64,000 nt of DNA, from contig DFIN01000001.1 of assembly GCA_002372135.1 (NCBI GenBank), positions 478 through 64,477 of the forward strand, in the 5' to 3' direction. Both the position numbers and the translations under genes were made by a program. This document shows positions 18,981 through 51,000 of the stretch, one piece after another; position 1 is the first letter of the stretch, and each line of letters begins with the position of its first letter. The stretch comes from Bacteroidales bacterium UBA3696 (GTDB lineage Bacteria; Bacteroidota; Bacteroidia; Bacteroidales; Paludibacteraceae). The notes beneath the pieces are model-generated. The model saw only the letters and a list, made by a program, of their open reading frames with translations, was not told the origin of the DNA and searched no databases.

Positions 18981-19991
18981 ATGTCTCTTTTGCATAAACT
19001 ATTCTGCTTGGAAATCGTTGCTGTCGCTCTTTGCGCGTGTGAGGAGATGTTTTACCACGAAGTGGATTTTCGCGTGGAAGGCGGTCAGCCTAAGTTGGTG
19101 CTTCTGGCTGAGAGCAGGGTAGGGAATATACCCGCTTATCAGGTTACTCATACCAAACTGCTGGATGAAAATACCGGCTCGCAACCGTATTATTTATTGA
19201 TGGATGCCGATGTGCGCTTTCGCCGTAACGGCGGTGAATGGATTCGGCTTTATACGCTGAATGATACGAGTATCTATTGCCTGACCGAAAACGGCGCATT
19301 GCCCCCCGCTATTGGTCCGTTGGATACCATCGAGTTGAAAGTGTCTCATCCCGATTATCCTTCGCTCTACGCAAGGCAAGTGATGCCCGATTATGCCTAT
19401 GCCACTCTCACGCAATACGAAAAGCAGGACAACAATTCGGTACTTCTAACCCTGCATATTGAACCCTATCGTGGCAATGCGGACGATATGATTGCCATTC
19501 GTTCGCAGATGTGGAATGTGTATTCCGTGGACTCCGTATTCGCCAAGGCGCAAAACATGCAAGCCGGTGCCTACTACGGCGCTGACGAAACGTACAGCCT
19601 CTTTTTTCCGGCGGCGTTGTTGTCTCGTTCGTTGGATATACAACTCTTTGCAGATGGAGGAAAGCCCTTTTATACAGAAACGGATACAATCTTCCTGACT
19701 CCGAGAAATCTGAGTCTGACCTGCTCGGTTCTTACTCGCGACGGGTACTTGAATGAACTTTTCCGGCGCACTTATACCCAAACCGAATTGGATGTGCCGA
19801 GTTGGGTACCTCGGCAGAGTGGCAACTGGATGCAAATCATCTTGGAAGGGGTTACCGAAACTTTAGGACAACAGGAATTGCTGTCCGTCTATACCAACGT
19901 TGAGGGCGGGTTAGGCTATCTGTTCGGATGGAGTTCAATGCCTGTCGGCTGTCCGAATACGTTGTACCATGTACCTTCACGCAGGATGTAA
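18981..19991 (+). CDS. DUF4249-like lipoprotein (receptor partner)
   Basis: Lipobox VALCAC. The position immediately after a CarboxypepD_reg-type TonB receptor is typical of DUF4249. C-terminal EGGLGYLFGW. Confidence 0.65.
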   Translation: MSLLHKLFCLEIVAVALCACEEMFYHEVDFRVEGGQPKLVLLAESRVGNIPAYQVTHTKLLDENTGSQPYYLLMDADVRFRRNGGEWIRLYTLNDTSIYCLTENGALPPAIGPLDTIELKVSHPDYPSLYARQVMPDYAYATLTQYEKQDNNSVLLTLHIEPYRGNADDMIAIRSQMWNVYSVDSVFAKAQNMQAGAYYGADETYSLFFPAALLSRSLDIQLFADGGKPFYTETDTIFLTPRNLSLTCSVLTRDGYLNELFRRTYTQTELDVPSWVPRQSGNWMQIILEGVTETLGQQELLSVYTNVEGGLGYLFGWSSMPVGCPNTLYHVPSRRM

Positions 19992-22900
19992 AGCATACCG
20001 TTTTCCATCACTTTACGTACTGACCGATCGTCGGTTGACACAGCCTCGTGATCGGTAGGCGTCTGCGGACGGAATACCAATCTGGCAGGCGTACCACGAC
20101 GAACACTCATATAGCCGGTCTTAGGCACTTGGAAGTAGGCACGGAAACCACGGAGCGGATTGGTCGTATTGGGCCATAACAAGGTGTTGCCATCGCTCAC
20201 AAAGAGGTTGTCATGGTCATAATAAGCCATCTGAACGCGGCATACGTTGCCCACAAACTGAATTCCATCACCTATCGATTGACCGGCATCCGTGGTAATG
20301 GTCACGTTGTTGAATACTAAGTCGGTTAGCACTTCGCCCGTATTGTCCCATTTAATCAGATAGGGTACACCTGCTTCGATGGCGGTAACGGGAGTCATAT
20401 AGATGTCCAACTGCTTGTCCCCCAACTTGACTGCGCCATCGTAGGCGAATAACTGACATCCTGCCAACGGAGAGACGGCTATCTCAGCCTCCGACATACT
20501 GAATGGCAGACACAGCGTATTGAAACTACCGTCCTTGTAGAGCGTGCGCTCTATATGAAGGTTCGGCACGGTCACATTCAGCAGCGGAGTGAAGAACTCA
20601 GTAATCTGCATACTGGTCTCGCTGATGGTGAGCGTACTCTTAGAGCCGGTGGCTGTTCCGCCGTCGGTGTCCAAACGCTTGGCGCGAGGTGCTATGCGGA
20701 TATAAGCAGGGCGGACGGGAGCACCTGCGGGAGAAACCACCATGGCAGACGACACATGGAGGGTCAGTTGCTCACCAGCCTTTTTGCCTTCTAATAATAT
20801 ACCGCGAAAAGGAGGCAGCAGTATAGGCTCGGCATCGGTGGTTACATCGTGGTTAAAACTCGTCTCTGTCCATTTGGACGGAGCGGTAGCCGTTCCGTCA
20901 GGCTCGTAGTAGTACTTGCCTGTGAGTTGATCCGTATTGTCCGCCACCAAGCGGGCTATGTCTATGTAGCCGAAAGTGGGATTGCCAAATAGATAGACAC
21001 CCTCATACTGCTCGTTGAGCGTGAAGGTCGTGTTGCCCGTGAATGCCGGTTTGCCGTAGTCTTCGTCGCGAACGATGAACTCGCTTTCATCCAACCATTG
21101 GGCTGCCAAGCCGTCGTAGTAGTTATACATGTTGTCCACCTGGCAAACGAATCACGGGGGCAGGCGAACCGGCGGCACAATCTATTCCAATCATGCTGGC
21201 ATCACCCGGATGCATGGGACGGGTCAGCGTATTGGTGGCGCGAAGCCACAAGTCATTGGCAGCGTCGTATTCGGAGTTATACACCTCATAGGTATAGCGG
21301 TCGTCAGCATCAGTGCCAGCAATCTGGCGAATAGTCGCCACGGTGAACGGGTCGCTGCCCTCCCACTGCGAGGCAAACACATCGCCGCTGACTATCCCCT
21401 TCAAGGGAACGGATGCCAGAGTCCAACGCTCTGCATTTAGCGGCATATCCACAAAGGCCTGTCCATTGATATTCACCTGTTCTTGCCCTGCCATAGACGC
21501 TCCTGCGGGCAGGTATAGGTGGTGGCACTTGTTCTTAGTATAGTTGAAGTCATACGACTCAACAGCATCGTTCACAAACGTAACCGCATAGTCCTTAGGA
21601 AGCATCACCACATCGGTTTCTTCCATAGGAATAAACGAACTCCAGTTGGCATCTTGATTCCATTCGCCCCCCAACCATGTTACCACATCGGGGACGATGC
21701 GCAAAGTGAAATAGGTATAACCTCTATCGCACTTATCGTCTGCGCTTTCGCCGATGAAAGCGATGTGGAAAGTATAGTCGTATCCGGCAGCCAGGGAGGC
21801 GAGTCTCGCGCCGGAGAGAGTGATGGTATCCACTACATCGATGATTGCCTTGTTAGAGTTCAAGCGTATGGAACGCCATCTCGGGCAGGTAGAGGAAACG
21901 ATATAGATACTGTCCACTTCGTAGTGTTCGCCCGGATCGCCTTTGAGATAAAGGGGCAGGTCGAACGAGCCTCTGCGTTTCTGCGCGTCCGATATACGGA
22001 CGATACGCGGGCGACCGGCTACCACTTCGGGCAGCACTTCTGTTTTGTTGCCGACCGCCATCATATTAGACATCGGTACAGCGGGTTTGATATGCAGGAA
22101 TCGCGGCGAGGTACAAACCTGCTTGCTGCCTGCCGAGCCTGCCAAGGGGAAGGCGGTATAACTGAGTGAGACGGCGGCTTGCATACTGATGGACGCAGTG
22201 TCCAAAGTCAATAGCCCCTGACGAACAAGCGAATTGACGCTCTCAATGGCTGAGGGCACATTGTCGCGGTAGAAAATAAGCAGTCGCTGAATCTCGTCGA
22301 AGGTATGGTGATAGACTTCGGGGTGTTCGTTCACATAGACCGAGTCGCCAATCAGCCAGTCGGCACGGCAGTGGGTGGTGTCTATCTTCAAAGGATCATA
22401 CGGGTCAGTCTCATCACGGATGATCTGCGTTAGCACGATGTTGAGTGTATAGGAACGGTGTCCGCAGACGCTGACTACTGAGTCGCCAAGAGTGATGTCG
22501 TCGTTGATGGTGATGCGCGTACCGCCTGCCACCAGCATGTCGGAAAAGGTGCCGCACCCTTCCCGCTTGCCGAGTTCATCGTGCTGCTGCGATACGAAGC
22601 CGGTATAAGCGTAGTTAGTACGCACTTCCATCGGTTGGGCAATGTAGATGACGTAGCGTTCGGTAGTGGCATCAACCCGCTCTTTGACATAGCGATACAG
22701 AGGCACTTTTGTTTCGCGGTATGCGGCATCAAAAGCCAAAAGAGATGCACTTGTCAGCCCGCTTGCCTCAATCGCTTCGTCGGTGGTGAGAATGGGTACG
22801 CAACCGAACACGGTGGAAGCACTATCCTTGTTGAAGTATTTTGACCTGATGATATTTTCACCCTCGCGCCACTGGTAGAATAGTGGTTGCCCTTCGTGTT

Positions 22901-24728
22901 CGATGGCTTGATAGTCCACGCGCAGATAGGCACGTATGGTATCGCGGGCTTTGTCAATACAGTCGGATGTCGAAGCCTGCAAGGGCATAACCGGCGGCTT
23001 CTGCACATAGATACGTATGTCGTCAAGTGCAAAGTCATTGCCTTGCGAAGAACGCGCCTTGTTCACAATCTTCAAGCGATAGGTATGGTAGTCATTGGTC
23101 TTGTCTATTTCAACAGGAAAGATTACCTGAAACCACTCTCCTGTTTTCATTATCTTTCCTCTCTGACCGGTACTATTTTTCACATTAAAACCAAACTCAC
23201 CGGTGGTAAATCGCGTGAGACGATGCTCCACACCTTCATCATCAATACCGATAACAATAAAATCCATATTCGGTGCAGAACCATCGTTTGAAGAACCTGA
23301 CAAATCAACTAACCATGCAGAGAAGTACATTTTTGACCCAGGGCATAGGTCGGTATTTACTTTTAGGCTGAAAACCTCACCCGGGATCTCCGATCCATCG
23401 CAATAAAGCATATAACCTGACTTTGCGTTGTTCTCATCGGTTTCAGCGGCCAAATCATTGTGATTATACACCCATTTGGATGTATTTGCCCAAGATGTGC
23501 GTTGGTTACAAATGCCGTATTCACCCCAATAGACATCATGCGGGTTATATGCTCTGTAAGTTTTATCATTCTTGTCTTTTGTAGAAAACTCTTTGAAATA
23601 ATAGCCGTAAGTGGATTCTTCTGGGTGTAAATGACCTGCCCACCAACTTATAACTTTGCTTTCAAATTCAGGCTTATCAAAGTTGAAGGTCTGTTCATAG
23701 AGCAGTTCCATTCCGGCAAATGTATTGTCTGTAAGGTTTGCAAGCGGACCAACCTTGTTTACATCCATATACGTTACAACAAACTGGGCTATATTGTATA
23801 TCATTGTGCCGGTATTATATTGAAGCGTATAAGTGCGTACCCCCTCAACATCACTTTTTACACCTATGTACTGCCCCGAAGCAAATAGTTCAACATTAGA
23901 CAAAGTAACAGCACTCGCACCATTATCAGACCATTGCCATTTCGACCAATCACACATCTGAACAGGGGAGTTTTTGTCATAGTAGTAACTGCTGCGTGTA
24001 GCAAACCTGTACGATTGGTTATAATTGTAGATAGTGGAATCCACTATGGCGAACTCGGGTCCGAGATATAGCTGCCTTCCTGTAGGAGCAATGATGTGGT
24101 ACGTTTCCAAATAATTTTCCGTACAGGTGTCCACACGAGCAGCAATTTCTGATGCAGGATGGAATTCATATATTAAACGATTTGACAATGTCGGTTCTAC
24201 ATAAATGATATCGTTCACATAATCTTTATAGACTGACTGGTCACATGCAAGACGGAAAACACTGTCCTGCATAGTGTATGTAACTTCCCAAAAATAAGAA
24301 GATCCGCCCTCAAACCGATAATATCCGGCAGCAGTAGAATACCTAAACCCGTATGTACTGGTATTATACTCATGGGTTGTAGTATTATAAATAGGAGCCT
24401 TTCCAACCACTTCCGTTTCTTCATAACTCAATCTGTCCGTATCATAGTTGTATCAACGTATCCAACTCTGATAGGTTCGAAAATTCGGGCGATACAGACG
24501 AATCACTTCCCCCGGCGCGGCATAAACTATACTCGTCTTGGTATGTGTTGCCTGCATGCCGTTTTCCATCAACCCGTGCGGACCGGCTTTATGCTGAAAA
24601 CTCGCTTGCGCCTGTGCCATCAAAGGGCAAAACGCAAAGACCAGCACACATACAGCCCACCGCGTCAGCCACAGCCCGATACGCGTATTATTTCCTGTGT
24701 TCACTCCTTTCATACTCCTCAAATGCAT
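19916..24728 (-). pseudogene. large (about 1600 aa) surface protein interrupted by an in-frame TGA and a 1-nt frameshift
   Basis: Track ORFs 24453-24728 (signal peptide IGLWLTRWAVCVLVFAFCPLMAQA), 21123-24431 (1102 aa, GNDFALDDIRIY lectin/MAM-like motif) and 19916-21139 (407 aa, no signal peptide, C-terminal tail). The first two share one frame, separated by TGA at 24453-24455. Confidence 0.6.
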
Positions 24729-24890
24729 GGGATTATAATAAACGATTTGTTTTTAGCGAAAAAAACGCCGCGACAGTACGGCATAACCGACAATTGCACA
24801 AACAAAAACGTCTGTTTGATAACTTTTTTATTTTCAATCCCTACGAAAGTATTACTTTTGCCACCGCAATTCCATAATGCGTCGGATATT

Positions 24891-25982: not shown

Positions 25983-25990
25983 TACCTTTG
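25983..25990 (+). promoter_or_regulatory. TAnnTTTG -7 box upstream of hipB-like gene
   Basis: TACCTTTG, 75 nt upstream of ATG 26065, in an AT-rich spacer. Confidence 0.35.
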
Positions 25991-26064: not shown

Positions 26065-26376
26065 ATGACGGACATTTATAATTATTCGACCACAGAAATA
26101 GTCCGCATGTTAGGGCAACGGGTACGTAAGTATCGTATCCTATCAGGACTTACTCAAAAAGAATTGGCTCAAAGGGCTGATGTGTCCGTTCCTACTTTGC
26201 AGGCTTTTGAGAAAGGACAAAACAAGGACATCTCTTTCTCAACACTATTGCGTTTACTGAGAGGATTGGGACAATTGGATAGGGTGGAGGATATATTATC
26301 TGATTTATGGGAATCACCCTATATGTTACGGAGCGATGGAGAGCAGGTAAAAAGAGTTAGACATAGTAAATCATGA
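26065..26376 (+). CDS. hipB: XRE-family HTH antitoxin (HipB-like)
   Basis: HTH core LTQKELAQRADVSVPTLQAFEKG. ATGA overlap with the downstream HipA-like gene. Confidence 0.8.
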   Translation: MTDIYNYSTTEIVRMLGQRVRKYRILSGLTQKELAQRADVSVPTLQAFEKGQNKDISFSTLLRLLRGLGQLDRVEDILSDLWESPYMLRSDGEQVKRVRHSKS

Positions 26377-27860
26377 GGCAATTTCTGCATATATATCTTT
26401 GGGGCAAGGAGATAGGGCAACTTGAATGGAAAGCGCGAGCCGGTCGGTCTGTTTTTGCGTATAATCCTACTTATCTGTCCGAAGTAGGTATTTCGCCGGC
26501 TCCCCTGATGGCTCCAATTCGTAAAGATGCTCTGTTTCGATCCTTTGTTAGCGAGGATGAACGTATATATCATCGCTTGCCGTCTTTCTTAGCCGATTCG
26601 TTACCCGATGACTGGGGAAATGCGTTGTTTGAGCAATGGAGAATGGAACAGCATTTATCCTCTGCGAACGTAACACCACTTGACAAACTGACTTTCATCG
26701 GTCAGCGAGGAATGGGTGCATTCGAATTTGTGCCGGATGCGCAGTTGGCTCCCCAAGCGGACGAGGTAAATATAGCAGCCTTAGCCCATTTGGCGCAACG
26801 TATATTCTTGGAACGCGAAAAAGTGGTGATTGACCCGTCTGAAACTTTGACGAAGAAATTACTTCTGGCAGTAGGTACTTCGGCAGGTGGACGACAACCC
26901 AAAGCGATTATTGCAATCAATCGGGAAACAGGTGAAATACGTTCCGGACAGATTGCAGGGCTTGACGGGTATGATTACTACATCCTTAAGTTCGGCGATA
27001 AAGACCGATCTTCTGCCGAACTGGAACAAACCTATTATCAGATGGCAATCAATGCAGGAATTGATATGATGCCTTGCCGATTGTTGGAAGCTGATGGAGA
27101 AAAACATTTCTTGACACAGCGTTTTGACCGACCGAACGGAGAAAAACTGCACATGCAAACGCTGGCTGCTATGGATCCCGATGCCAATAGTTATGAACAA
27201 CTGCTGCTGGTTTGCCGCAAACTGCAATTGCAGGAATCCGATACGGCTGAGGTATTCCGCCGTATGGTGTTCAATTACTTGGCGAACAATACCGATGACC
27301 ACCACAAAAACTTTTCGTTCCTCATGAATAAGAAAGGCGAATGGGCATTGGCTCCCGCCTATGATATGACCTATATATTCAACCGTGGTTACCAGCCGGA
27401 TACAGATCATTGTCTTTTGATGCGCGGTAAATATTCTTTGTGGACTAAAGACGATGTGCTGCAATTTGCTATTGATAATGGAATTGCCAACTACGAGAAA
27501 ATCATCCGTAAGGTGGCCGATGCGCTGATGCAGTTCCGTGAGTTAGCCGAAAAAAACGGCGTTAGGCAGGAATGGATAGGGCGCATTGAAAGTACGATTC
27601 AAACTCATTTGCGCGAGTGGGGATTCATTATTGAACATGTGGAAGACGAATGGACTACTCCGGCTGGCACGCATATATCCAAAGTCTATCTTGAGCAGGC
27701 ATACAAAGGGAACTACCATCTGTTCGCAACCGTGGACGGAAAACAAAAAAAATACATCATCCGCAAATCCACACCCGATTATGAACTAATTGAGCAAACC
27801 GGTCTCCATCACCTCAATAGCGAACAACTAAAGGAATTAGTGGAGAGTTGTATTTTATAA
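26373..27860 (+). CDS. hipA: HipA-family serine/threonine kinase toxin with C-terminal extension
   Basis: HipA N-terminal coupling domain. P-loop-like VGTSAGGRQPKA, catalytic NNTDDHHKNFSF, APAYDM. 495 aa, i.e. about 80 aa beyond the usual kinase core. Confidence 0.85.
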   Translation: MRQFLHIYLWGKEIGQLEWKARAGRSVFAYNPTYLSEVGISPAPLMAPIRKDALFRSFVSEDERIYHRLPSFLADSLPDDWGNALFEQWRMEQHLSSANVTPLDKLTFIGQRGMGAFEFVPDAQLAPQADEVNIAALAHLAQRIFLEREKVVIDPSETLTKKLLLAVGTSAGGRQPKAIIAINRETGEIRSGQIAGLDGYDYYILKFGDKDRSSAELEQTYYQMAINAGIDMMPCRLLEADGEKHFLTQRFDRPNGEKLHMQTLAAMDPDANSYEQLLLVCRKLQLQESDTAEVFRRMVFNYLANNTDDHHKNFSFLMNKKGEWALAPAYDMTYIFNRGYQPDTDHCLLMRGKYSLWTKDDVLQFAIDNGIANYEKIIRKVADALMQFRELAEKNGVRQEWIGRIESTIQTHLREWGFIIEHVEDEWTTPAGTHISKVYLEQAYKGNYHLFATVDGKQKKYIIRKSTPDYELIEQTGLHHLNSEQLKELVESCIL

Positions 27861-27891: not shown

Positions 27892-29400
27892 ATGCAAAAA
27901 TCAGTTGTAGAATATTTAACGAAAACAGTCGCTGCTTTTCCTAATAAAATTGCTGTTCATGATGAGAAAGAGGAAATCGCTTTCTCACAATTGTGGCAGA
28001 ATGCCACGAGCATAGCTAATGCTCTGCAAAACAGAGTAACTCCTCGCCAGCCCATCGGAGTGTATATCCCGAAAGGTTGCAAAATGGTGACCTCTTTTGC
28101 TGCAATCAATATGGCTGCAGATTTCTATGTGCCTTTGGATACCAAATCGCCCGCTCAACGCATAGCATCCATCTTAACCACTCTTGGAGCCAAAGTGGTG
28201 ATAACTGATGTGGCTCATAAAGAGGCATTGTCTGCGTTCTATCAAGGAGAGATATTGGTTTATGAGGAATGTATAAGTTCTGTTAATGAATCACAATTCT
28301 TGCGTTATGAGAGAGAGCAGATAGATACGGATCCTATTTATTCTATCTTTACATCCGGTAGCACCGGAGTTCCAAAAGGTGTTGTGGTCTCTCATCGCGG
28401 AGTAATAGATTATATCGATTGGGCTGTAGATACGTTTAAGATTGACTCCACGGCCGTTATTGGTAATCAGGCACCATTCTATTTCGATAACTCTACATTA
28501 GACATCTATTTGATGTATGCAACCGGTGCTACGCTGAATGTTATCCCCGAAATCAACTTTGCTTTCCCCGCCAAACTCATTGACTATCTCAACGATCAAA
28601 AGATAACCTTTGTATTCTGGGTGCCGTTTGTGTTAGTGAATGTGGCTAACATGGATATTTTGGCTTCAAAGAAGCCGCAATATCTGCGTGATATCTTTTT
28701 TGCCGGAGAAGTGATGCCGAATAAGCATCTAAACTATTGGCGTAAGCATCTGCCTAATTGCCGATATGCAAATCTTTATGGGCCTACAGAGATTACAGTG
28801 GATTGCACTTATTATCTTGTTGATAGAGAGTTCTCTGATGACGAACCATTGCCGATTGGCATTCCCTGCCGCAATAGCGATGTGCTGATACTGGTTGATA
28901 GAAAACGGTTCGCGCAACAAGGAGAGCAAGGAGAATTATGCGTTCGTGGAACCTCATTGGCTTTAGGCTATTACAATAATCCGAAGAAAACGGCAGAGGC
29001 GTTCATTCAAAACCCGCTTAATACACACTATCCTGAGACCATCTATTGTACAGGCGATGTGGTATATGAGAATGAACGAGGTGAGATGATGTATGTCGGA
29101 CGCATCGACTCGCAAATCAAGCACAATGGCTATCGCATCGAATTAGGAGAGATAGAGACTGCTATATTGGGAAGCAATTTAGTGGACAACTGTTGCGTAT
29201 TATACAACAATAAGGAGAAACAAATCGTGCTCGTATATCAGGCTGAACAAGAATTGAATATAGCAGCATTGCGCAAAGCAATTGGAGAAAAAATCCCTAA
29301 ATATATGCTTCCGACAGCATACCACCGAGAATATGTTCTCAAACAAAACAATAGTGGCAAGATAGATAGAGCACATTATAATAGGTATATAAATGGATAA
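27892..29400 (+). CDS. stand-alone amino-acid adenylation enzyme (DltA-like)
   Basis: A-domain core motifs FTSGSTGVPKGV, YGPTE, TGD, GRIDSQIKHNGYRIELGEIE, NSGKIDR. 502 aa, no condensation or thiolation domain. Confidence 0.85.
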   Translation: MQKSVVEYLTKTVAAFPNKIAVHDEKEEIAFSQLWQNATSIANALQNRVTPRQPIGVYIPKGCKMVTSFAAINMAADFYVPLDTKSPAQRIASILTTLGAKVVITDVAHKEALSAFYQGEILVYEECISSVNESQFLRYEREQIDTDPIYSIFTSGSTGVPKGVVVSHRGVIDYIDWAVDTFKIDSTAVIGNQAPFYFDNSTLDIYLMYATGATLNVIPEINFAFPAKLIDYLNDQKITFVFWVPFVLVNVANMDILASKKPQYLRDIFFAGEVMPNKHLNYWRKHLPNCRYANLYGPTEITVDCTYYLVDREFSDDEPLPIGIPCRNSDVLILVDRKRFAQQGEQGELCVRGTSLALGYYNNPKKTAEAFIQNPLNTHYPETIYCTGDVVYENERGEMMYVGRIDSQIKHNGYRIELGEIETAILGSNLVDNCCVLYNNKEKQIVLVYQAEQELNIAALRKAIGEKIPKYMLPTAYHREYVLKQNNSGKIDRAHYNRYING

Positions 29401-30223
29401 AGTAACTTCCATAGAACAACTGAAAGAACTGATATCGGGTATCCGTAATCTGCGTCAGGGTTTCGTAACCAATTTCTATTTGGATGAGGTGAAGCATAGG
29501 GCTTGGATTCAAACCGGCAAATTCTTATATGCTAAGCACGATGATGCCGTATTCCTGTTCTTTGATCATGAAGCCGAGAATATAGAGAACTACTTTACGA
29601 ATTTGTTTTATATGGCAACTTCTGAAGAAGTTATGTTAAAGCACCTAAAAGCGTATCCGGAAATGTATATATATGATTTATACATATTGGATATAGTAGG
29701 ACGTAAAGAGATATGTGAACCGCTGGTAGAAAAACTGAAATCAATAGGTGGTCATGATGACGCGCATGTGTGTAGAATGACACGAATTGGAGAAGTGAAT
29801 GTGGAGTTGGCTGTTCGAGGAACAAATATTCACTATGCAGATGAAGTAGACTTGGAGCAGATAGAGTCGCTATTGCATATACATTTTGATGAACAACTGG
29901 AGCAAATACCACTAAGAGATGAGTTAGCGCAAATGGTAGCGGATAAACATATATTACTATGTCAGCGCGAAGGGAAGAATGCCGGAATATTGCTTTTCGA
30001 GCATAATGCAACGACTCTATATTTGCGGTATTGGTTGGTACTCCCTGAATGTAGAAACAAAGGAGTGGGTAGCGAACTATTGAGACATTTTTTATGGGAA
30101 GGTCGTGAAACCAAAAGGCAGATACTATGGGTGAACCAAGCCAATGAAAATGCGATCGTTCGTTACGAACACTATGGATTTAAACAAGAAAATATGTATG
30201 ACTATATAGTAAAATATTGTTAA
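29393..30223 (+). CDS. GNAT-family acyltransferase (two-lobed)
   Basis: C-terminal lobe with acyl-CoA motif A (VLPECRNKGVGSELL) and ...NENAIVRYEHYGF. Overlaps the upstream stop by 8 nt. Confidence 0.65.
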   Translation: MDKVTSIEQLKELISGIRNLRQGFVTNFYLDEVKHRAWIQTGKFLYAKHDDAVFLFFDHEAENIENYFTNLFYMATSEEVMLKHLKAYPEMYIYDLYILDIVGRKEICEPLVEKLKSIGGHDDAHVCRMTRIGEVNVELAVRGTNIHYADEVDLEQIESLLHIHFDEQLEQIPLRDELAQMVADKHILLCQREGKNAGILLFEHNATTLYLRYWLVLPECRNKGVGSELLRHFLWEGRETKRQILWVNQANENAIVRYEHYGFKQENMYDYIVKYC

Positions 30224-30224
30224 A

Positions 30225-30458
30225 ATGAGAGAAAAAATAATTGAAATTTTGACGGACTTGCGTCCCGAGTTTGACTTCTCGCAAGAAGGCATTAACTTCA
30301 TTGATGAAGGCATGTTAGATAGTTTTGATTTAGTTGCTTTAGTCAGTGATATAGAGACTCAATTCGGCATAAAAATAGATGGAGTAGATGTAGTCCCCGA
30401 AAATTTTTGTTCGATAGATGCCATAGTAAGTTTATTAAGCAAAAATGGAGTAAAATAA
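30225..30458 (+). CDS. carrier protein (DltC/ACP-like)
   Basis: 77 aa. Phosphopantetheine-attachment context EGMLDSFDLVALV. Confidence 0.8.
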   Translation: MREKIIEILTDLRPEFDFSQEGINFIDEGMLDSFDLVALVSDIETQFGIKIDGVDVVPENFCSIDAIVSLLSKNGVK

Positions 30459-31522
30459 TGGATTTCGTATTTCATAATAAGCGTATAGCCGGTATTTTAA
30501 CAGTACTTCCACACCAATCCGTGCCTTTTGAAGACGAGATGGGAAACTATAATTTTTCACCCGTAAAGTGCCAGAAACTGAAATTGGCGATGGGATATCG
30601 CGAACATCGTGTTGCGCAAAAAGGTCAGACATCGTATGACTTCTGTGTATATGGTATGCAGTATTTATTTGATGAAGGATTGCTGAAACCCGAAGAAATA
30701 GATGCTTTGCTATTCGTCAGTCAGAGTCCGGATTATTTTATCCCACCGACAAGTAATTTGATACAAGGATATTTTGGACTCAAAAGCGATATGCTGTGTT
30801 TGGATATCAACCAAGGTTGTGCCGGATTTGAGGTGGGATTGATTCAGGCATTTATGTTGTTGGATCAACCGGCTATCAATAAAGTGGTGTTACTCAATGC
30901 CGATGTGTTAAGTTCGAAAGTGTCTGACTACGACAGAAACAGCAAACCGCTAATCGGAGATGCTGCATCGGTAACTATCGTAGAGAAAGCCAATGAGGAT
31001 AATGCAATCTATGCCAATATAAAAATGGATGGAACCGGAGCGTTGGCCTTGAATATTCCCGCAGGGGGATTTCGTATGCCATCCACACCCCAAACGGCTG
31101 AAATGGAGGAGGACCTATCCGGTAATAAGCGTTCCAAAGATAATTTGGTTATGCGAGGCGATGATGTGTTTAACTTTGTTCAACGTGAAGTACCGCCGAT
31201 GATTGAGCATTTAATGGAGCAAGCCCATATAAGTGGTGATGATATTGATTGGTATATGTTTCACCAGCCTAACAAATTTATGCTCCATAAATTGGCAGAA
31301 AAATTGAATGTTTCCTACGATAAGATGCCTGCTAATATAGTGGAGAATTTTGGGAATGCCAGTGGTGTGACCGTGCCGACGAACATCTCATTTAATCTTG
31401 GTGAGGCGGTAGTGAATGGTTCGGTACGCGTGTGTATGGCAGGGTTTGGAGTCGGATTAACATGGGCAAGTATCTATATGAAACTGGAGAAAATGATGTT
31501 TAACAAAATAATTGAATTTTGA
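30458..31522 (+). CDS. KAS III (FabH-like) 3-oxoacyl-ACP synthase family protein
   Basis: Cys-His-Asn triad contexts NQGCAGF, MFHQPN, FGNASGV. Start ATG 30458 overlaps the upstream TAA (TAATG). Confidence 0.85.
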   Translation: MDFVFHNKRIAGILTVLPHQSVPFEDEMGNYNFSPVKCQKLKLAMGYREHRVAQKGQTSYDFCVYGMQYLFDEGLLKPEEIDALLFVSQSPDYFIPPTSNLIQGYFGLKSDMLCLDINQGCAGFEVGLIQAFMLLDQPAINKVVLLNADVLSSKVSDYDRNSKPLIGDAASVTIVEKANEDNAIYANIKMDGTGALALNIPAGGFRMPSTPQTAEMEEDLSGNKRSKDNLVMRGDDVFNFVQREVPPMIEHLMEQAHISGDDIDWYMFHQPNKFMLHKLAEKLNVSYDKMPANIVENFGNASGVTVPTNISFNLGEAVVNGSVRVCMAGFGVGLTWASIYMKLEKMMFNKIIEF

Positions 31523-31523
31523 T

Positions 31524-31733
31524 ATGGAAGAGTTATTGAATAAGATGGCCGACTTATTAGAAGTAGAGTCAATTGATCCGCAGAAGAAATTTAAGGATTA
31601 TGAAGAGTGGGATTCCTTTACGCGGCTATCCGTATTAGCGATGTTGGATGCTGACTATCATGTGCAGATGACCTACGAGCAATTAGAGGCTTTCCCTTCG
31701 ATAGAAGATTTCTGCAAAAAAGTCTTAGGATAA
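31524..31733 (+). CDS. second acyl carrier protein
   Basis: 69 aa from ATG 31524. Serine context YEEWDSFTRLSVLAML. Confidence 0.7.
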   Translation: MEELLNKMADLLEVESIDPQKKFKDYEEWDSFTRLSVLAMLDADYHVQMTYEQLEAFPSIEDFCKKVLG

Positions 31734-32461
31734 TGGCTACATGCTATACGCTAATCACCGGTGCAAGTTCCGGCATAGGAGCAGCATGCGCTAAGTTGCT
31801 ATCAACCCAATCACGTTTAATATTGTGCGGGTCAAATCGTGAACGCCTTGAACAATCGCTTGCGCAATGCGCCCAACAAGAAAAGCATCTATTATGGGTA
31901 TGCGATTTTGACGCACAATTTGATGAAGTGTTCGATGGGTTAAGTGCGTTTCTGAAGGATAACGATGCGGTAGTGGATAATTATGTTCATTGTGCGGGAT
32001 TAACACGCATATTGCCGCTAAAAGATTTTACTCCTACGTATACGAAAACAGTGTTTCAGGTGAACTTTTTCTCCATCGTAGAGATATTGCGCGTGCTGTT
32101 GAAACGTATGAATCAGAAGGCATTGCGTAATGTGGTCTTGATTTCCGCTTTGGTAAGTCAGCGTGGAGATAGAGGAAATGCTATCTATGCGGCATCCAAA
32201 GGCGCCGTCAATGGAATGGTTTATTCGTTGGCGCAGGAATTGGCTCCGATACGGATAAACGCAGTAATGCCGGGTTTAGTCAATACGCCTATGGCACAAC
32301 GAACACCTGAAGAGTTTCGTGAAAAGATATGGGCAAAAATTCCATTAGGTAAAGGCGAACCGGAAGATATAGCCAACTATGTGGCGTTTCTGCTGAGTGA
32401 TAAAGCACGATGGATAACCGGTCAAACAATATTTGTAGATGGAGGACAGAGCACATTATGA
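31733..32461 (+). CDS. SDR-family oxidoreductase (FabG-like ketoreductase)
   Basis: TGASSGIGAA cofactor motif, YAASKGAV catalytic YxxxK. TAATG overlap upstream. Confidence 0.85.
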   Translation: MATCYTLITGASSGIGAACAKLLSTQSRLILCGSNRERLEQSLAQCAQQEKHLLWVCDFDAQFDEVFDGLSAFLKDNDAVVDNYVHCAGLTRILPLKDFTPTYTKTVFQVNFFSIVEILRVLLKRMNQKALRNVVLISALVSQRGDRGNAIYAASKGAVNGMVYSLAQELAPIRINAVMPGLVNTPMAQRTPEEFREKIWAKIPLGKGEPEDIANYVAFLLSDKARWITGQTIFVDGGQSTL

Positions 32462-32988
32462 GTAATTGTAAGGAGTGGGTAATCCCTAATGAACCGATTA
32501 CGATTGGTTATGGTCATCAGAAACGCAGTTTTCGAGAGAAAGTGCGTAAAGTAAGAAATACATTATTGGCTCGATGGGCATATGCATGTCCGATAAACAA
32601 ACTGCGAGTGCAATTCCATCGTTGGCGGGGTATGCATATCGGAGATAATGTGTATATCGGAATGTATTGTATTTTTGACAACTTGTCCCCTGAGTATATC
32701 TATATTATGGACAATGTTTCAGTCAATGCCAATACAATGATCATCACTCATTTCAATCCGGTTGACCGATTCAATAAGATGTTTGAGGCACAGATTCGAC
32801 CTGTCGTGATAAAAGAAAAGGCTATGGTAGCCGTTCGCTGCACGATCTTGCCCGGTGTAACAATAGGTGAATATTCAATCGTGAGTGCCGGAATGGTAAT
32901 TGACAAAGATGTTCCCGATTATACGATGGTGCGAGAGAAGCAAAAACGACAGGAAGTAGATATGCATTTTATGTTTAGAAGTTTATAA
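32458..32988 (+). CDS. left-handed beta-helix (hexapeptide) acyltransferase
   Basis: Hexapeptide repeats (IGDNVYIGMYCIF, VRCTILPGVTIGEYSIVSAGMVI). ATGA overlap with the SDR stop. Confidence 0.8.
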   Translation: MSNCKEWVIPNEPITIGYGHQKRSFREKVRKVRNTLLARWAYACPINKLRVQFHRWRGMHIGDNVYIGMYCIFDNLSPEYIYIMDNVSVNANTMIITHFNPVDRFNKMFEAQIRPVVIKEKAMVAVRCTILPGVTIGEYSIVSAGMVIDKDVPDYTMVREKQKRQEVDMHFMFRSL

Positions 32989-32990
32989 AG

Positions 32991-34154
32991 ATGAATATAT
33001 TGATTCAACTTTCTCATCCTGCACATTTTCACTTGTATAAGAATGTCGCAAAAAACTTGATAGCAAATGGACACCATGTGCTATTTGTAATTAAGACGAA
33101 GGATATATTGGAGCAACTATTGAAAAATGCAGGGTTGCCCTATGAAAATATCAATCAATATGCCCACAGAGGTTCCAAATTAGGTGTCTTGTGGGATATG
33201 TTGGTGAGAGAATGGCGGATTGTGCGCCTGTGCAGAAAACATCACATTGATTTATTGACCGGTTCCACCCCGGATGTTGCGCATGTCGGGTGGCTACTTA
33301 GAAAAATGAGAGTTAATATCGGTGAAGATGATTTGAATGTTGTTCCTGCATTTGATATTATCGCTTCTTATTTTGTACAGACATTAGTTGCACCATCCAC
33401 CTGTGGCTTGGGACATATTGAGTATAAGGCTGTTCATTACCCCGGCTATCACGAGTTGGCGTATTTGCATCCGAACCATTTTACGCCTTCGCGCGAGGTG
33501 GTAGAAGGGTATGGAATGCCTTATCCATTGGCTCCATATTTTATTTTACGTTTTGCGTCTTTGAACGCCCACCACGATACTGGCATTAAAGGTATCAATG
33601 CAGAAGTGGCACAACGGCTGATTGATATTCTTTCCCCATACGGACGGATATATATCACCTCAGAGCGACCTTTAGAACCACAATTTGAGCAGTATAGAAT
33701 CCATATCAACCCATTGGATATGCACCATGTGATGGCTTTCGCATCGCTTTATATTGGGGATAGTCAGACTATGGCTGCTGAAGCAGGTGTGCTTGGTGTA
33801 CCTTTTGTTCGGTTCAACGACTTCGTAGGGCGCATAGGTTATCTCCGTGAGTTGGAAGGTGTGTATGAATTGGGTTACGGCATCCACGCAACGCCCCTTG
33901 CTGCGGATAGTCCTATTCGTCGTACCGATGGCTCTGTGCAGCCGAGTGGAGTAGAGGCTTTGTATCAGACCATGGAACGGCTTGTTGCTATGTCGGCGGA
34001 AGAACGAAGAAGTACTTTCCAAGCAAGGCGTGAGAAAATGCTTTCAGAAAAGATTGATTGTGCCAAGTTCCTGACGTGGTTTATCGAAAATTATCCCGCT
34101 TCGGTAGAGCAGACAAGAATGGCGAATACAGCCTTTTGGGAGTCGTTCAAATAA
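32991..34154 (+). CDS. DUF354 domain protein (GT-B / epimerase-like fold)
   Basis: NILIQLSHPAHFHLYKNVAKNLIANGHHVLFV, YPGYHELAYLHPNHF and IGDSQTMAAEAGVLGVPFVRF match my recollection of the DUF354 pattern. Confidence 0.65.
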   Translation: MNILIQLSHPAHFHLYKNVAKNLIANGHHVLFVIKTKDILEQLLKNAGLPYENINQYAHRGSKLGVLWDMLVREWRIVRLCRKHHIDLLTGSTPDVAHVGWLLRKMRVNIGEDDLNVVPAFDIIASYFVQTLVAPSTCGLGHIEYKAVHYPGYHELAYLHPNHFTPSREVVEGYGMPYPLAPYFILRFASLNAHHDTGIKGINAEVAQRLIDILSPYGRIYITSERPLEPQFEQYRIHINPLDMHHVMAFASLYIGDSQTMAAEAGVLGVPFVRFNDFVGRIGYLRELEGVYELGYGIHATPLAADSPIRRTDGSVQPSGVEALYQTMERLVAMSAEERRSTFQARREKMLSEKIDCAKFLTWFIENYPASVEQTRMANTAFWESFK

Positions 34155-34199
34155 GATACTTCTCGATCATTCCTACGTAAGATACTCTATCATTCCTAC
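34152..34199. repeat. imperfect tandem duplication (25 + 22 bp) at a convergent gene junction
   Basis: TAAGATACTTCTCGATCATTCCTAC (34152-34176) and TAAGATACTCTATCATTCCTAC (34178-34199). The second encodes the last residues (GMIEYL) of the minus-strand chromate transporter. The first contains the DUF354 stop. Confidence 0.8.
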
Positions 34200-34769
34200 A
34201 GCAGCGGCGAGGAGAATAAGATAGATAGGGTGGCTGATTGTATCCAACCACTTGCGGCGGGACGTACCTTGTTTGGCCGGGATAAATACAGGCAACAGCA
34301 TACATACAAACACGACGGCAAAAATGACCCAACTCTGCCCGTCAGGGAAAGTGGCAGGGGACATGAGCGTGTAGGCTGCATGCGCGATAAGCACCACGAC
34401 CATCAGCCGAATGGCGCGCATCGTCCATACAAACACGGGGTTATTCTGCCAGCGGTCGCGTATATGGTCATAAATGTAGCATATAATGCTCATTATGAGT
34501 AGAGAAGGCAGAACGATCGCAGCGGAAGCCAGTAGGCTACCCCCCACACCCCCTACCGTATAACCCACATACGTGGCACAGTTCATTCCAATCGGTCCCG
34601 GGGTAACTTGACTGATTGCCACGATGTCCACAAACTCTTGTTCGGTAACCCAACCATATCGCAGCACGTCTTGCTGTATGAGGGATATGACTGCCATTCC
34701 TCCACCAAAACCGATGAAGCCCACTTTGAGAAACGAGAGGAAGAGTTGCAGATACACCATGTTTACCAA
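34173..34769 (-). CDS. chrA: chromate transporter family protein (half-size, C-terminal partner)
   Basis: FLKVGFIGFGGGMAVISLIQ CHR motif, multi-TM. Confidence 0.85.
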   Translation of the reverse strand: MVNMVYLQLFLSFLKVGFIGFGGGMAVISLIQQDVLRYGWVTEQEFVDIVAISQVTPGPIGMNCATYVGYTVGGVGGSLLASAAIVLPSLLIMSIICYIYDHIRDRWQNNPVFVWTMRAIRLMVVVLIAHAAYTLMSPATFPDGQSWVIFAVVFVCMLLPVFIPAKQGTSRRKWLDTISHPIYLILLAAAVGMIEYLT

Positions 34770-35176
34770 ATGTTTTTAGCCAGTCGTACTACCGTGGCGG
34801 CAATCAAAGCCACAACGGCAGGTCTAACGCACCGAAATACGGCTTCCACGGCGGGAAGCGATTTGTATTGGGAGAAACACATCGCTATGATTAGGATGAT
34901 GCCCACCGAAGGCAATACTGCCCCCACTAATGCCGCTAATACCCCGCGCCAACCGGCTATGCGATGACCGATAAAGATGGCACTATTGACTGCAATCAGC
35001 CCCGGGGCGGCTTGCGCTAATGCCATCATGTTGAGGAACTCTTTCTCGTCCAACCAGTGGCGGCGATCCACTACTTCGCGTTGCACCAACGCCAACATAG
35101 CATACCCTCCACCGATGGTGAAGGTGCCAATCTTAAGGTAGGTAAGGAAAAGTGTGAGCAGTCGGTTATTTTTCAC
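34763..35176 (-). CDS. chrA: chromate transporter family protein (half-size, N-terminal partner)
   Basis: YLKIGTFTIGGGYAMLALVQ CHR motif. Overlaps its partner by 7 nt. Confidence 0.85.
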   Translation of the reverse strand: MKNNRLLTLFLTYLKIGTFTIGGGYAMLALVQREVVDRRHWLDEKEFLNMMALAQAAPGLIAVNSAIFIGHRIAGWRGVLAALVGAVLPSVGIILIIAMCFSQYKSLPAVEAVFRCVRPAVVALIAATVVRLAKNIW

Positions 35177-47990: not shown

Positions 47991-48032
47991 ATGTGCACGG
48001 TGCACGCTACTAACTCAAAAAACAATATACGT

Positions 48033-51000
48033 ATGAAAAAATTTTTCTCCTTTTGTTTGGTGATTGCCGCCGTGTTTCTGACCCTATCTCCGCAGATAGC
48101 GCGGGCGCAGTTAAATGAGTATTTTTCTATCCGAAGTACGTGGTCGGGGGCAACTACGACCATTACGTTCAACGGGAGTGTCAGTGTGGATTTGTGGTAC
48201 TCTACCGACAAGTCCAACTGGACGCAGATTACCGAGACAACCAATATCCCCACGTACAACAAAACCTATTTCAAGGGAAACAACCCGACCGGTTTCAGCA
48301 CAAGTACAACGGATTTTGTGCAGTTCTTGGCAGGAGGGACAAGTCAGGTTTACTACCTTGAGGGCAACATCATGTCGCTCATTAACGGCAATGATTTTGC
48401 GACTAATTATTCCACAATCCCGTCTGATTATTGCTTTTATTCCTTGTTTACCAATAAAGCGGGGTTGAGTAGTGGATATACAGAAACCAATTGGTATGCC
48501 GGCGATTTACTACTACCGGCGGATTATCTGACTCCGCACTGTTACGAGTCGATGTTTGAGCGAACATACGTCAAGACGCAGCCGCAACTGCCTGCGCAGC
48601 ATTTGGCGGAGTATTGCTATCATAAAATGTACTATACCAGTATGTCATTGGATATGCGTACCTCTTATCCCGCTACGCCGATAGAGTATATCCTTCCGGC
48701 GGAGGAGTTGGTGCCGCACTGCTATGAGCATATGTTCGGCATATACAACAACAATCCGACTATTTACCAATATGTAACCATTATGGCAACCTCTTTGCAA
48801 GACCGCAGAGGTGAAGATATTGAAAATTGCCTGAAAGAGATGTTCTATTATGGTGTCGCTCTTAGCTCTACATCCGGCAAATATACCAAATATTTTGTAC
48901 AACTGTTCTTTACGAATTGGGGGGATGTCAGCAAGACAACTTGTCCGACATACAACTGGTTCGGTGGAAATTATAATTGTTCCGGTAACTATTTCTTCTA
49001 TGACGCAAACCTTTCTTGGTCAGTATCTAATATTAAATTGGGATACAGCGGTATTAAATCTCAATTCCCGAATGGAGCATATAGTTGCGAAACGAACAAT
49101 TGTACGAGCTTCTGGGTGCCTGAAGATTACAACTACCTCACTTTCGACTGTAAGACCAACGGCGGCACATGGGAGGCGGATGACGACTACAACACCGACC
49201 TCCGCCGCGTGGTGCGTGCCGGCTACACTGCCAAGACGGTGCCTGCCGCTCCGCACAAGTTAGGTTGCACCTTCCTCGGCTGGTACACCGCTCCCTCTGG
49301 AGGTACGAAAGTGGATAACGCCACTATCCTCTCACAGACAACGGCGCAAACCTACTACGCGCAGTTCATACCTAACGATGTGGACTACACCATCACCATC
49401 GCCAACGGCGAACACGGACACGTAGTCGTAACGCGCAACAACGAACCGACTGCCACTTACACCACCACCTCTTCGGTGCACAATATGTCCGAACTGACTA
49501 TCACTGCCGTTCCCGATGCAGGCTACCGCTTCAAAGCATGGACAGGCGATGCCGCCACTATCAAAACAGCTGAAGACAATGGCACCACCTACTACCTTGT
49601 TAACGACATCACCGTAGGTGCCACCTTCGAAGCCGACGAATGCACCGTGACGATTAACACCCCTGCATCCAACGGTACGCTGGCTGCATCCGACGGCACG
49701 AACAACTACGCTTCGGGCAATACCTACACTTTCAACCGCCAATTAGACCTCAACAAGGTGCTGACCTTTACTGCCACACCTGCCACACACCGCCTCTTCA
49801 CAGGCTTCACGGTAACGGGTGCGGAATTGAGCAACATTACAGCAGCCCACACCCCGTATCAATATGATGATGTGGTAACGGCTCAATACACCATCACCGC
49901 CTCCACACCGGACGAGGTGACGGTAGACGCGACCTTCGTCAAACCGACCTACACAGTCTCCACGTCCATCACCGGCAAGAACGGCGGTTATGTCACCCTG
50001 ACAGCCGACGGCTATGCTGACCAGACCGGCAGCGGAACGTATGACATCGACACCCGCGTGACCCTGACCGCCACGCCGAACAACGCGATGTTCAAATTCG
50101 TCAAATGGACTGACAATGACAGCGACAACCCCGTGCGTGTCATTACAGCGCTGACTAGTGATATAGCTCTCTCAGCCGAGTTTGACTTGGAGGGCGAACT
50201 CTGGTCCGCTCCCGCTACGGTGGATGTCTATTCGTCAGGTGTCACCCCGACCTGCACTTCTACTATTACAACATCCAACTATCGCATCCTGTATAATTTG
50301 GATCCCGTTAAAGGTAGTGACAACATTACCTATACGCCTGTGGATATGGGTGCAGGTGTCGCTTGGGCGGACAAGAACATCGGTGCCACCGACCCGACCA
50401 AGGCGGGCAGTTACTTCTATTGGGGAGGCACAAAAGCCTACGGGGAAGAAGGTTATACAACGGTATCAAGTTCAAACTACTATAAAGGAGTGGCGGATAT
50501 GACGGCGACCACATCAACAGCTGTCGCCGCGCAGTATCCTTTACCCACTGAAGCTGATGCCGCAACGCAAAAGATGGGCGGGCAATGGCGTATGCCTACT
50601 TACTATGAGATGAATAATCTCATTTCTTCCACTTACACAAGTAGTGCGCAGGTTAATTATAACTATACAGTTACCAACAAGTACTACACAGACGATAAGA
50701 TTTTTATTCCTGCCGGAGGACGATATGAAACCACTTTGTCCAAAGGTGCGGCATACCTTTGGACAAGTACCGTAGCTGGTAAGAACGGAGCCAGCAGCAA
50801 ACCGTGGGTATATTATAATCACGCGATGAGAGGCAATGTTACTACCACTGGAAATTCTGTGGCTTATTATGCTCTGCCTGTCCGTGCCGTCTATGTCCCG
50901 TCGTTCGAGACCTGCACGCTGCAAGTGCTTGTCTATTGGGCATCTACGCTGAAATGGACTTACAACTACATCTGTGAGGTCGGTCAGACCGTCACCATCC

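Follow-up and report, generated by a model that had tools for sequence, protein, structure and literature searches.

The question raised by this locus is what a set of biosynthetic genes is doing far from the kind of pathway that it seems made to serve. A stretch of 64,000 nucleotides from Bacteroidales bacterium UBA3696 (Bacteroidota, Paludibacteraceae; GenBank assembly GCA_002372135.1, contig DFIN01000001.1, positions 478 to 64,477), hereafter the window, derives from a sheep-rumen metagenome scaffold and contains eight consecutive genes that combine an amino-acid-activating enzyme with two small carrier proteins, a condensing enzyme, a ketoreductase and putative transferases. Comparison with relatives led us to consider it likely that this unit is a tailoring cassette of a Bacteroidales surface-polysaccharide locus, building an unusual acyl side chain of a sugar, and its orphan appearance is best explained by polymorphism of the locus together with action in trans. 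The eight genes are as follows (ACP, acyl carrier protein; KAS III, beta-ketoacyl-ACP synthase III; SDR, short-chain dehydrogenase/reductase; LbH, left-handed beta-helix; GT, glycosyltransferase; AF2, AlphaFold2).

27892..29400, + strand: stand-alone adenylase of the non-ribosomal peptide synthetase type, 502 aa (TIGR01733, PDB matches, motifs)
29393..30223, + strand: tandem GNAT acyltransferase, 276 aa (Pfam GNAT, AF2 model, Foldseek)
30225..30458, + strand: carrier protein 1 (CP1), 77 aa, motif LDSFD (PP-binding), partner of the adenylase
30458..31522, + strand: KAS III-type condensing enzyme, 354 aa, Cys-His-Asn triad (ACP_syn_III, ACP_syn_III_C)
31524..31733, + strand: carrier protein 2 (CP2, the elongation ACP), 69 aa, motif WDSF (PP-binding)
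31733..32461, + strand: SDR ketoreductase, 242 aa (adh_short, adh_short_C2, KR domain, motifs)
32458..32988, + strand: LbH acyltransferase, 176 aa (Hexapep, PDB matches)
32991..34154, + strand: DUF354-related GT-B-fold protein, 387 aa (transitive PF04007, AF2 model)

An earlier note, made from the letters of the window, had described this set as a stand-alone operon of eight coupled genes. The list of open reading frames (ORFs) and a reading of the sequence at each junction agreed with it on all eight co-directional genes (27892-34154) and on all seven junctions, namely an 8-nt overlap at 29393, a 1-nt gap at 30225, TAATG at 30458, a 1-nt gap at 31524, TAATG at 31733, ATGA at 32458 and a 2-nt gap at 32991, which mark the genes as translationally coupled. 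Its gene-by-gene assignments likewise stood when domains were called with Pfam and NCBIfam against curated cut-offs and motifs were read directly off the translations, the DUF354 label being right only indirectly (see below). The boundaries as drawn were too narrow, since a FemAB-like gene and a hipBA pair lie upstream on the same strand. The 11 ORFs of the resulting FemAB-to-DUF354 unit contain no frameshift or premature stop, and retain their catalytic motifs and overlapping junctions. As the same arrangement recurs in 7 contigs from independent assemblies of sheep-rumen samples, it is no assembly artefact.

The genomic contexts of the cassette in relatives were gathered through a search for homologs of the GNAT protein and a metagenome scan that added 80 loci, and the 39 loci of at least 15 kb were tallied. 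All eight genes are found in the same order in L092/L097, L098, L170 and L176, and a partial copy is present in L178. In L092, where the proteins are 66-88% identical to those of the window, a PMT_2-like gene lies directly upstream, a GT4 gene downstream, and aminotransferase, ATP-grasp and HAD genes in the surroundings; in L097 the eight genes likewise lie between a PMT_2-like and a GT4 gene; in L098, L170 and L176 the eight genes form the variable part of a complete glycan-locus frame (described below). The closest nucleotide relative of the cassette is L178 (80% over 30086-34141), in which DUF354 is followed by an epimerase (Epimerase_2) gene at the place where the window has the chromate-transporter pair chrA. 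Other loci hold rearranged or partial versions: L091 has LbH, adenylase, GNAT, CP, KAS III, CP and SDR between GT2, GT4, DegT and GtrA genes; L093 (44% identity) has a FabD-like gene, ACP, SDR, adenylase, GNAT, CP, KAS III and a metallo-beta-lactamase (MBL) hydrolase near DegT, ATP-grasp, GT2 and NeuB genes; and L104 shows the arrangement of the window minus hipBA, its FemAB-like gene adjoining the adenylase gene on the upstream side.

The tally gave the same picture, with at least one glycan-locus marker within 10 kb of the adenylase-GNAT core in 38 of the 39 loci and a glycosyltransferase-type marker flanking it in 33 of them. In 43 of 47 loci the adenylase gene immediately precedes that of the GNAT, and in 43 of 47 a KAS III gene follows within 1.3 kb; the CP1 gene always stands between those of the GNAT and the KAS III, and the core is hardly ever without a second carrier and an SDR. 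Adenylase, tandem GNAT, CP1 and KAS III form the invariant core, near which LbH (24/39), DUF354 (4/39) and FemAB (3/39) occur less regularly. The earlier remark that similar gene sets are found within glycan loci was thus confirmed, and the proposal of a stand-alone system has to be given up, the operon being part of larger glycan loci in its relatives. The copy in the window is the one-in-forty exception that lies away from sugar-assembly genes.

In other cassettes of the same frame (L005, L026, L089) an FkbH-domain protein of ~520 aa (TIGR01686, 290 bits against a cut-off of 146.65; 288-290 bits as measured on L026 and L089) and a second ACP take the place held here by the adenylase and CP1. 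The FkbH loader of L089 adjoins a phosphocholine set (LicC-like, choline kinase, BCCT and LicD genes), and L034 encodes a 620-aa FkbH-like protein that scores slightly under the TIGR01686 cut-off. In L175 the adenylase-GNAT core has grown to about 4 KAS III, 6 SDR and 4 carrier genes, and such multi-round expansion is also seen in L109-L111, L149 and L161; the gene content of L175-type sets suggests that they build longer polyhydroxy acyl chains within a glycan locus.

The last gene of the unit provided an independent route to its context. DUF354 loci were taken from 80 species-representative genomes, each of them carrying a Bacteroidales label or probably mis-binned; the surrounding ORFs were grouped into clusters, whose representatives were named by Pfam. 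The neighbours were encountered in the following numbers of DUF354 loci.

UDP-GlcNAc 2-epimerase (Epimerase_2), directly downstream of DUF354: 53/80
GT4, 315 aa: 51/80
LbH acyltransferase: 51/80
FemAB-like gene: 42/80
PMT_2-like GT-C membrane protein: 41/80
GT2: 34/80
KAS III: 27/80
SDR: 27/80
DXD-GT: 23/80
Wza: 19/80
polysaccharide deacetylase: 17/80
Wzc: 17/80
Bac_transf: 13/80
CpsB: 11/80
DegT: 10/80

The typical map reads GT2, DXD-GT, PMT_2-like, GT4, (FemAB), variable genes, DUF354, epimerase, and the FemAB-like homologs near DUF354 are 41-58% identical to that of the window. Because the glycosyltransferase and epimerase neighbours and the order of this map recur across the 80 genomes, DUF354 is the conserved 3' frame gene of a Bacteroidales glycan locus, and the segment directly upstream of it is variable. 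Neither the adenylase nor the GNAT is encoded in any of these 80 DUF354 loci. A scan with hidden Markov models (HMMs) indicated that the window holds a partial copy of the frame, with FemAB, LbH and DUF354 present and PMT_2-like, GT4 and Epimerase_2 absent.

Scanning of the large ORFs of the window with Pfam, the others having precomputed Pfam calls or being nested in longer ORFs, revealed in the 64 kb no gene for a glycosyltransferase, initiating transferase, flippase or polymerase, nor any for export or sugar modification. Custom HMMs made from the gene clusters of the relatives' glycan loci likewise gave zero matches in the window for GT2, GT4, PMT_2-like, DXD-GT, Bac_transf, Wza, Wzc, epimerase, DegT and deacetylase, and the next 10 kb of the source contig carry housekeeping genes. 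The earlier observation that there is no glycan locus here hence holds for the window and the next 10 kb; the genes that mark a capsule, O-antigen or exopolysaccharide locus are lacking in the window and present in relatives carrying the same cassette.

That the site is polymorphic is seen in five short contigs from other studies (L179-L183), which encode a DUF354 protein 85% identical to that of the window beside the same chrA pair. In L179 and L181 a nucleotide identity of 95-96% to the window extends only from position 33438, inside the DUF354 gene, onward, and in L179 it is kept through chrA to 35420; upstream of 33438 both contigs are unalignable to the window and carry a different LbH gene, of 238 aa. 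The DUF354-chrA junction is itself found in the independent assemblies and in the sister-strain contigs L179 and L180. Since identity stops at 33438 in sister strains, the locus seems to be a variable glycan locus that recombines in a conserved flank gene: the position ~33438 marks a recombination breakpoint within the conserved frame gene, the lineage has a fixed end of the locus on the chrA side, and one allele of this site is present in the window. FACL-like matches downstream of DUF354 in L015 and L025 were considered as a sign of shared synteny, and were set aside as paralogs because nothing else in those flanks matched.

The adenylase was recovered as an amino-acid adenylation domain of the AMP-binding kind (TIGR01733, 347 bits against a cut-off of 317.4), with the motifs TSGSTGVPKG, FDNS, NLYGPTE, YCTGD, GRIDSQIKHNGYRIELGEIE and NSGKIDR. 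The signatures A3, A5, A7, A8 and A10 are all present, as are Lys517 (NSGKIDR) and Asp235 (FDNS), the latter being the residue that binds the alpha-amino group of the substrate in such enzymes. The best matches in the PDB are to A domains of LgrA (1e-117), with GrsA A domains also retrieved, and DltA follows at 1e-57. The ten-residue specificity code, anchored on motifs and checked against an alignment with LgrA, reads D-N-L-F-F-A-L-V-D-K, which suggests a substrate pocket walled by bulky hydrophobic residues. Both carriers pass the PP-binding cut-off of 20.8 (CP1 22.8 bits, CP2 27 bits) and have the serine of the DSF motif. The labels DltA-like and DltC-like used in the earlier note are apt for the architecture and fail as statements of membership, as the scores fall far under the equivalog cut-offs: the adenylase reaches 290.8 bits on TIGR01734 (cut-off 559.85) and 306.5 on NF003417 (cut-off 476), and CP1 reaches 31.2 bits on the DltC equivalog (cut-off 68). 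By these scores both small proteins qualify as carrier proteins and not as DltC members. Pfam scans of the ORFs of the 64-kb window found neither dltB nor dltD. A single-sequence profile of CP2 also picks the ACPs of loader-less ACP/KAS III/SDR cassettes, such as that of L087.

The GNAT protein, which belongs to a family with 317 homologs in our search, matches Pfam GNAT at residues 166-266, and the motif RNKGVG places the acyl-donor lobe at the C-terminus. Its AF2 model (pLDDT 92.3) has two GNAT lobes in one chain, and Foldseek aligned it with the tandem GNATs MAB_4324 (TM 0.70), MshD (TM 0.67), VipF and the clavulanate tandem GNAT, at sequence identities of 10-16%; its description as two-lobed was therefore correct.

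The KAS III matches ACP_syn_III (47 bits) and ACP_syn_III_C (70.9 bits) over the Pfam cut-offs, and its motifs NQGCAGF, FHQPN and FGNASG align with the Cys, His and Asn positions of PDB 4efi; together with the intact motifs of the adenylase, this answers the possibility raised earlier that one of the two active sites might be degenerate. It is not the housekeeping FabH, because it scores below the FabH subfamily and equivalog cut-offs (162.6 vs 249). In a simple neighbor-joining tree rooted at the midpoint, a single clade holds the 56 KAS III genes located 3' of a GNAT-CP1 pair and 3 more, of which one is from a locus with a missed GNAT call; the 49 remaining KAS III genes, from loci of the same kinds, lie outside this clade. 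The SDR (adh_short_C2, 160 bits, 8.4e-47; KR domain) has the motifs TGASSGIG and YAASK and scores 150.8 bits on the FabG equivalog against a cut-off of 297.75, and is probably a ketoreductase that is FabG-like without being FabG itself. The LbH protein (Hexapep, 36.3 bits) has as its best PDB match WlbB, a UDP-sugar N-acetyltransferase (3mqg, 6e-12), followed by maltose and galactoside O-acetyltransferases, a WxcM-like protein (4mzu), QdtC and PerB; the scores for the O-acetyltransferases are nearly equal to that for WlbB, so that the matches do not distinguish N- from O-acylation. In the lineage of the window it probably transfers the finished chain to a sugar, as its relatives would suggest.

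The DUF354-related protein itself gave no Pfam match over threshold, the sole hit being Glyco_transf_28 at E=0.0035, and a sequence search of the PDB with it returned zero matches. Its phmmer relatives (E=1e-51 to 1e-80) score 34-59 bits on PF04007 against a cut-off of 22. The AF2 model, built from only 30 close homologs and with residues 111-163 unmodelled (pLDDT 67), has GT-B topology with two Rossmann lobes, and Foldseek matched it to GT1, MurG and UDP-GlcNAc 2-epimerases at a TM of ~0.5, which are generic GT-B matches. Hence, in its description as a DUF354 GT-B-like protein the fold is supported by the model, and membership in DUF354 is only transitive, through the phmmer relatives. More than 6600 homologs at 63-98% identity were counted. 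We infer that it handles a sugar nucleotide, transferring or converting it, and nothing more specific is assignable. The literature on DUF354 offers only a fold prediction ('glycosyltransferase-like, function obscure'), and our search, outside which most subscription journals lay, found no paper giving DUF354 or the cassette a function. DUF354-family proteins were also observed fused, in order, to a sugar formyltransferase (P0138), a SAM methyltransferase (P0250), a GT4 (P0252) and VanZ (P0161/P0174), all of which fit a function in the metabolism of sugar nucleotides or glycans.

From these elements the working of the cassette may be proposed as follows. The adenylase would load an alpha-amino acid onto CP1, and the tandem GNAT would acylate, probably acetylate, the amino group of the carrier-bound amino acid in the manner in which MshD acts on a cysteinyl group. 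The dedicated KAS III could then take the CP1-bound unit as starter and condense it with malonyl-CP2, the malonylation of CP2 presumably being supplied by the housekeeping FabD, and the SDR would reduce the 3-keto group to give a 4-acylamino-3-hydroxyacyl thioester. The LbH enzyme is expected to move this chain to an amino or, alternatively, a hydroxyl group of a sugar linked to a nucleotide, and the DUF354 GT-B protein would transfer or convert that sugar nucleotide; the genes for the backbone glycosyltransferases and for export must then lie at some other place in the genome. The scheme builds on established knowledge of related enzymes: FkbH enzymes load glyceryl units onto dedicated ACPs, and KAS III-family enzymes in initiation modules take carrier- or CoA-bound starters. 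The general logic of the earlier note, in which one carrier bears an amino acid, the other a beta-keto/beta-hydroxy unit, and transfer follows, is retained in it. In its favor, the KAS III genes tied to the loader form their own clade, FkbH loaders take the place of the adenylase and CP1 in other cassettes, and L093 has its own malonyl-CoA:ACP transacylase-like (FabD-like) gene.

Several points weigh against this reading. The chemistry is deduced from sequence, and gene order is no proof that the KAS III takes its starter from CP1. To our knowledge the code of the adenylase fits no established specificity. The LbH enzyme may not be the transferase of the product, as it is found near the core in just 24 of the 39 loci, and the MBL-fold hydrolase and ATP-grasp enzymes stand in its place in loci of the L093 type. 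No function is known for DUF354, whose structural model is of medium confidence. Finally, the window contains no glycan-assembly genes, and the acceptor pathway is assumed to lie elsewhere in the genome. A broader version of the tailoring-cassette reading regards the core as an amino-acid-primed mini assembly line for gamma-(acyl)amino-beta-hydroxy acyl decorations, in which strains swap the loaders, either adenylase plus GNAT or FkbH, and differ in how many KAS III/SDR rounds they run, so diversifying the glycan, and in which the orphan copy acts in trans; we advance it tentatively, as a possibility rather than an expectation.

The rival that shares most with the tailoring-cassette reading concerns the manner in which the two carriers cooperate. 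Here the KAS III would make acetoacetyl-CP2 from acetyl-CoA and malonyl-CP2, the SDR would reduce it to 3-hydroxybutanoyl, and two separate units would then be joined by the GNAT, acylating the aminoacyl-CP1, and by the LbH enzyme, moving the N-(3-hydroxybutanoyl)-aminoacyl group to an amino sugar. This is chemically reasonable, and amounts to the logic of the earlier note placed in a glycan pathway. N-(3-hydroxybutanoyl)-alanyl substituents are known on amino sugars in O-antigen chemistry; the GNAT has an intact motif of the pantetheine-binding type (RNKGVG); and the loader-less cassettes with ACP, KAS III, SDR and LbH (L006, L012, L087) most simply make a 3-hydroxyacyl group from acetyl-CoA. 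However, the KAS III enzymes of the GNAT-CP1 clade stand apart from the loader-less ones, at 27-34% identity, which argues for a different substrate, the gene 3' of CP1 is always the KAS III and not the SDR or CP2, and the FkbH and adenylase loaders hold equivalent positions. We therefore regard the joining of two units as rather doubtful, even if worth keeping in mind.

The two remaining alternatives take the isolation of the unit at face value. It might be a decaying, functionless remnant of a glycan locus that has lost its glycosyltransferase half, given that the frame genes PMT_2-like, GT4 and Epimerase_2 are absent, that an adjoining gene of ~1,580 aa is broken into three ORFs, that a toxin-antitoxin module sits within the unit and that its G+C content is lowered (0.39-0.43 vs ~0.50 in the flanks). 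Decay is nonetheless hard to reconcile with eleven intact, tightly coupled ORFs that keep all their catalytic motifs, with the identical arrangement in seven independently assembled sheep-rumen contigs, and with protein identities to relatives at the level of functional genes, and we consider it improbable. That the FemAB-to-DUF354 island is a self-contained pathway unrelated to polysaccharides, for instance for a lipo-amino acid, a glycolipid, an envelope decoration of the DltABCD or AlmEFG kind or a small secreted metabolite, appears very improbable. Such a view could draw on the 64 kb and the next 10 kb being free of glycosyltransferase, flippase, polymerase and export genes, on all genes being intact and coupled, on the conservation of the DUF354-chrA junction in sister strains and on lipid A and acyl-lipid genes (LpxB, acyltransferase, fatty-acid ligase) 2-6 kb downstream. 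Yet it sets one locus against the 38 of 39 with a glycan context, while the closest relatives of every gene sit in glycan loci and the LbH protein is closest to sugar acyltransferases; moreover, the island has no MBOAT/DltB-like or LpxL-like transferase and no transporter, and the downstream lipid genes belong to other transcription units, some of them on the opposite strand.

Known systems offer several partial parallels to the tailoring cassette. The flagellin-glycosylation island of Campylobacter jejuni (the Cj1299-Cj1308 region) holds sets of ACP, FabH-like, adenylase and carrier genes, and like the cassette combines a stand-alone amino-acid-activating enzyme, small carriers and a KAS III within a glycan locus; these sets are presumed to provide unusual N-acyl groups on amino sugars, their products being largely unassigned. 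They belong to another phylum and decorate a nonulosonate on flagellin, and are not known to have a tandem GNAT fixed between adenylase and carrier or the frame of DUF354, FemAB and PMT_2-like genes. A literature search for gene sets of the Cj1299-Cj1308 type returned incidental mentions only. Nearer at hand, the loader-less (L006, L012, L087) and FkbH (L005, L026, L089) cassettes lie in the same frame of GT4 ... LbH-DUF354-epimerase and share the logic of ACP, KAS III, SDR and LbH; they differ in having neither adenylase nor GNAT and in KAS III enzymes that are 27-34% identical and fall in other clades, the starter presumably being acetyl-CoA or glyceryl-ACP.

The pairing of an adenylase with a dedicated 8-kDa carrier for the decoration of an envelope polymer recalls DltA/DltC, which act in D-alanylation, and AlmE/AlmF of Vibrio cholerae, which act in the addition of glycine to lipid A. 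Unlike these, the set in the window has no DltB/DltD or AlmG-type transferase and adds a KAS III, an SDR and a second carrier; with the equivalog scores unattained and no DltB or DltD encoded, it is not a Dlt system. In the priming of tetronates by FkbH, ACP and a FabH-like enzyme, and in the R1128-type modules of KAS III and priming ACP in type II polyketide synthases, a dedicated loader likewise charges its own carrier with a unit other than acetate, which a KAS III-family enzyme couples to a malonyl- or beta-ketoacyl-carrier. Their products are polyketide antibiotics and not glycan decorations, whereas the loader in the window is an adenylase with a tandem GNAT and no polyketide synthase genes follow. 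Among single enzymes, MshD (mycothiol synthase) is a tandem GNAT that acetylates an aminoacyl-sugar amine, resembling the model of the GNAT as given above, and the LbH protein resembles WlbB and, more weakly, QdtC and PerB, which are LbH N-acyltransferases of sugar nucleotides; unlike in MshD and WlbB, the acyl donors here are probably carrier-bound and not CoA-bound.

How gut and rumen Bacteroidales interact with phages, the immune system and competitors is determined in large part by their surface glycans, whose non-sugar decorations are poorly known. The cassette is a widespread, uncharacterised and presumably amino-acid-primed acyl module, recurring as six to eight genes across many rumen and gut glycan loci, with a dedicated clade of KAS III tied to the amino-acid loader and with DUF354 marking the 3' edge of a hypervariable acyl-decoration region; the copy in the window is an orphan allele beside chrA with a hipBA insertion. 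Its importance lies mainly in being an example of this common module, the claim of a new stand-alone system having failed, and it offers a testable entry point in that four small soluble proteins are enough for reconstitution in vitro.

The immediate surroundings of the unit in the window comprise the following features.

19916-24728, - strand: gene of ~1,580 aa broken into three ORFs (91, 1102 and 407 aa), upstream boundary
24816 (TTG) or 24877 (ATG)..25952, + strand: FemAB-family/Acetyltransf_6 gene (FemAB 5.9e-14, Acetyltransf_6 8.2e-12)
26065-26376, + strand: hipB (Pfam HTH_3)
26373-27860, + strand: hipA (Pfam HipA_C, Couple_hipA)
34173..35176, - strand: convergent chromate-transporter pair (Pfam Chromate_transp), downstream boundary

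Just 31 nt separate hipA from the adenylase gene, and hipBA is a toxin-antitoxin module whose insertion parts the cassette from the FemAB-like gene. The two intergenic copies of the Bacteroidota-type motif TAnnTTTG are found at 24853, 5' of the FemAB-like gene, and at 25983, 5' of hipB, with none 5' of the adenylase; at 32 occurrences per 64 kb such motifs are weak evidence. A scan for sigma-70 promoters was discarded, as the 31 sites found against 28.8 expected are at chance level and the consensus is unsuited to Bacteroidota; terminator-like sites in the window mostly fall within genes. The broken gene, interrupted by an in-frame stop (near 24432-24452) and by a frameshift (near 21141-21169), appears to be either a pseudogene or the result of sequencing error. 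It matches no Pfam or NCBIfam family, has intact homologs of 1,400-1,630 aa in metagenome-assembled genomes of Paludibacteraceae, and its orthologs are at most 60% identical, the single context inspected sharing nothing with the window.

Toxin-antitoxin and defence genes are repeatedly embedded in or beside such glycan loci. We observed that hipBA also adjoins them in L005, L053, L057 and L085, that L006 carries CBASS (SMODS/SAVED/E2), L092 Hachiman (HamA/DEAD) and L091 GmrSD/AAA_15 genes, and that Fic and Bro-N genes are present in several. The chromate transporter consists of two adjoining short ORFs (195-198 aa and 137 aa), a split that is kept in sister strains. Elsewhere in the window, the segment 9610-19991 (+ strand) encodes a cluster of three proteins with Cthe_2159 carbohydrate-binding domains and others with a VTC domain, DUF4956 or DUF2490; after these come a SusC-like TonB-dependent receptor and a DUF4249 protein. 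At 47991-59606 (+ strand) lies a gene for a protein of 3,871 aa with at least 13 divergent InlB B-repeat (Flg_new_2) domains and Lcl_C, which is probably a giant surface adhesin and whose C-terminal part weakly resembles the C-terminus of the ~1,600-aa family to which the broken gene belongs.

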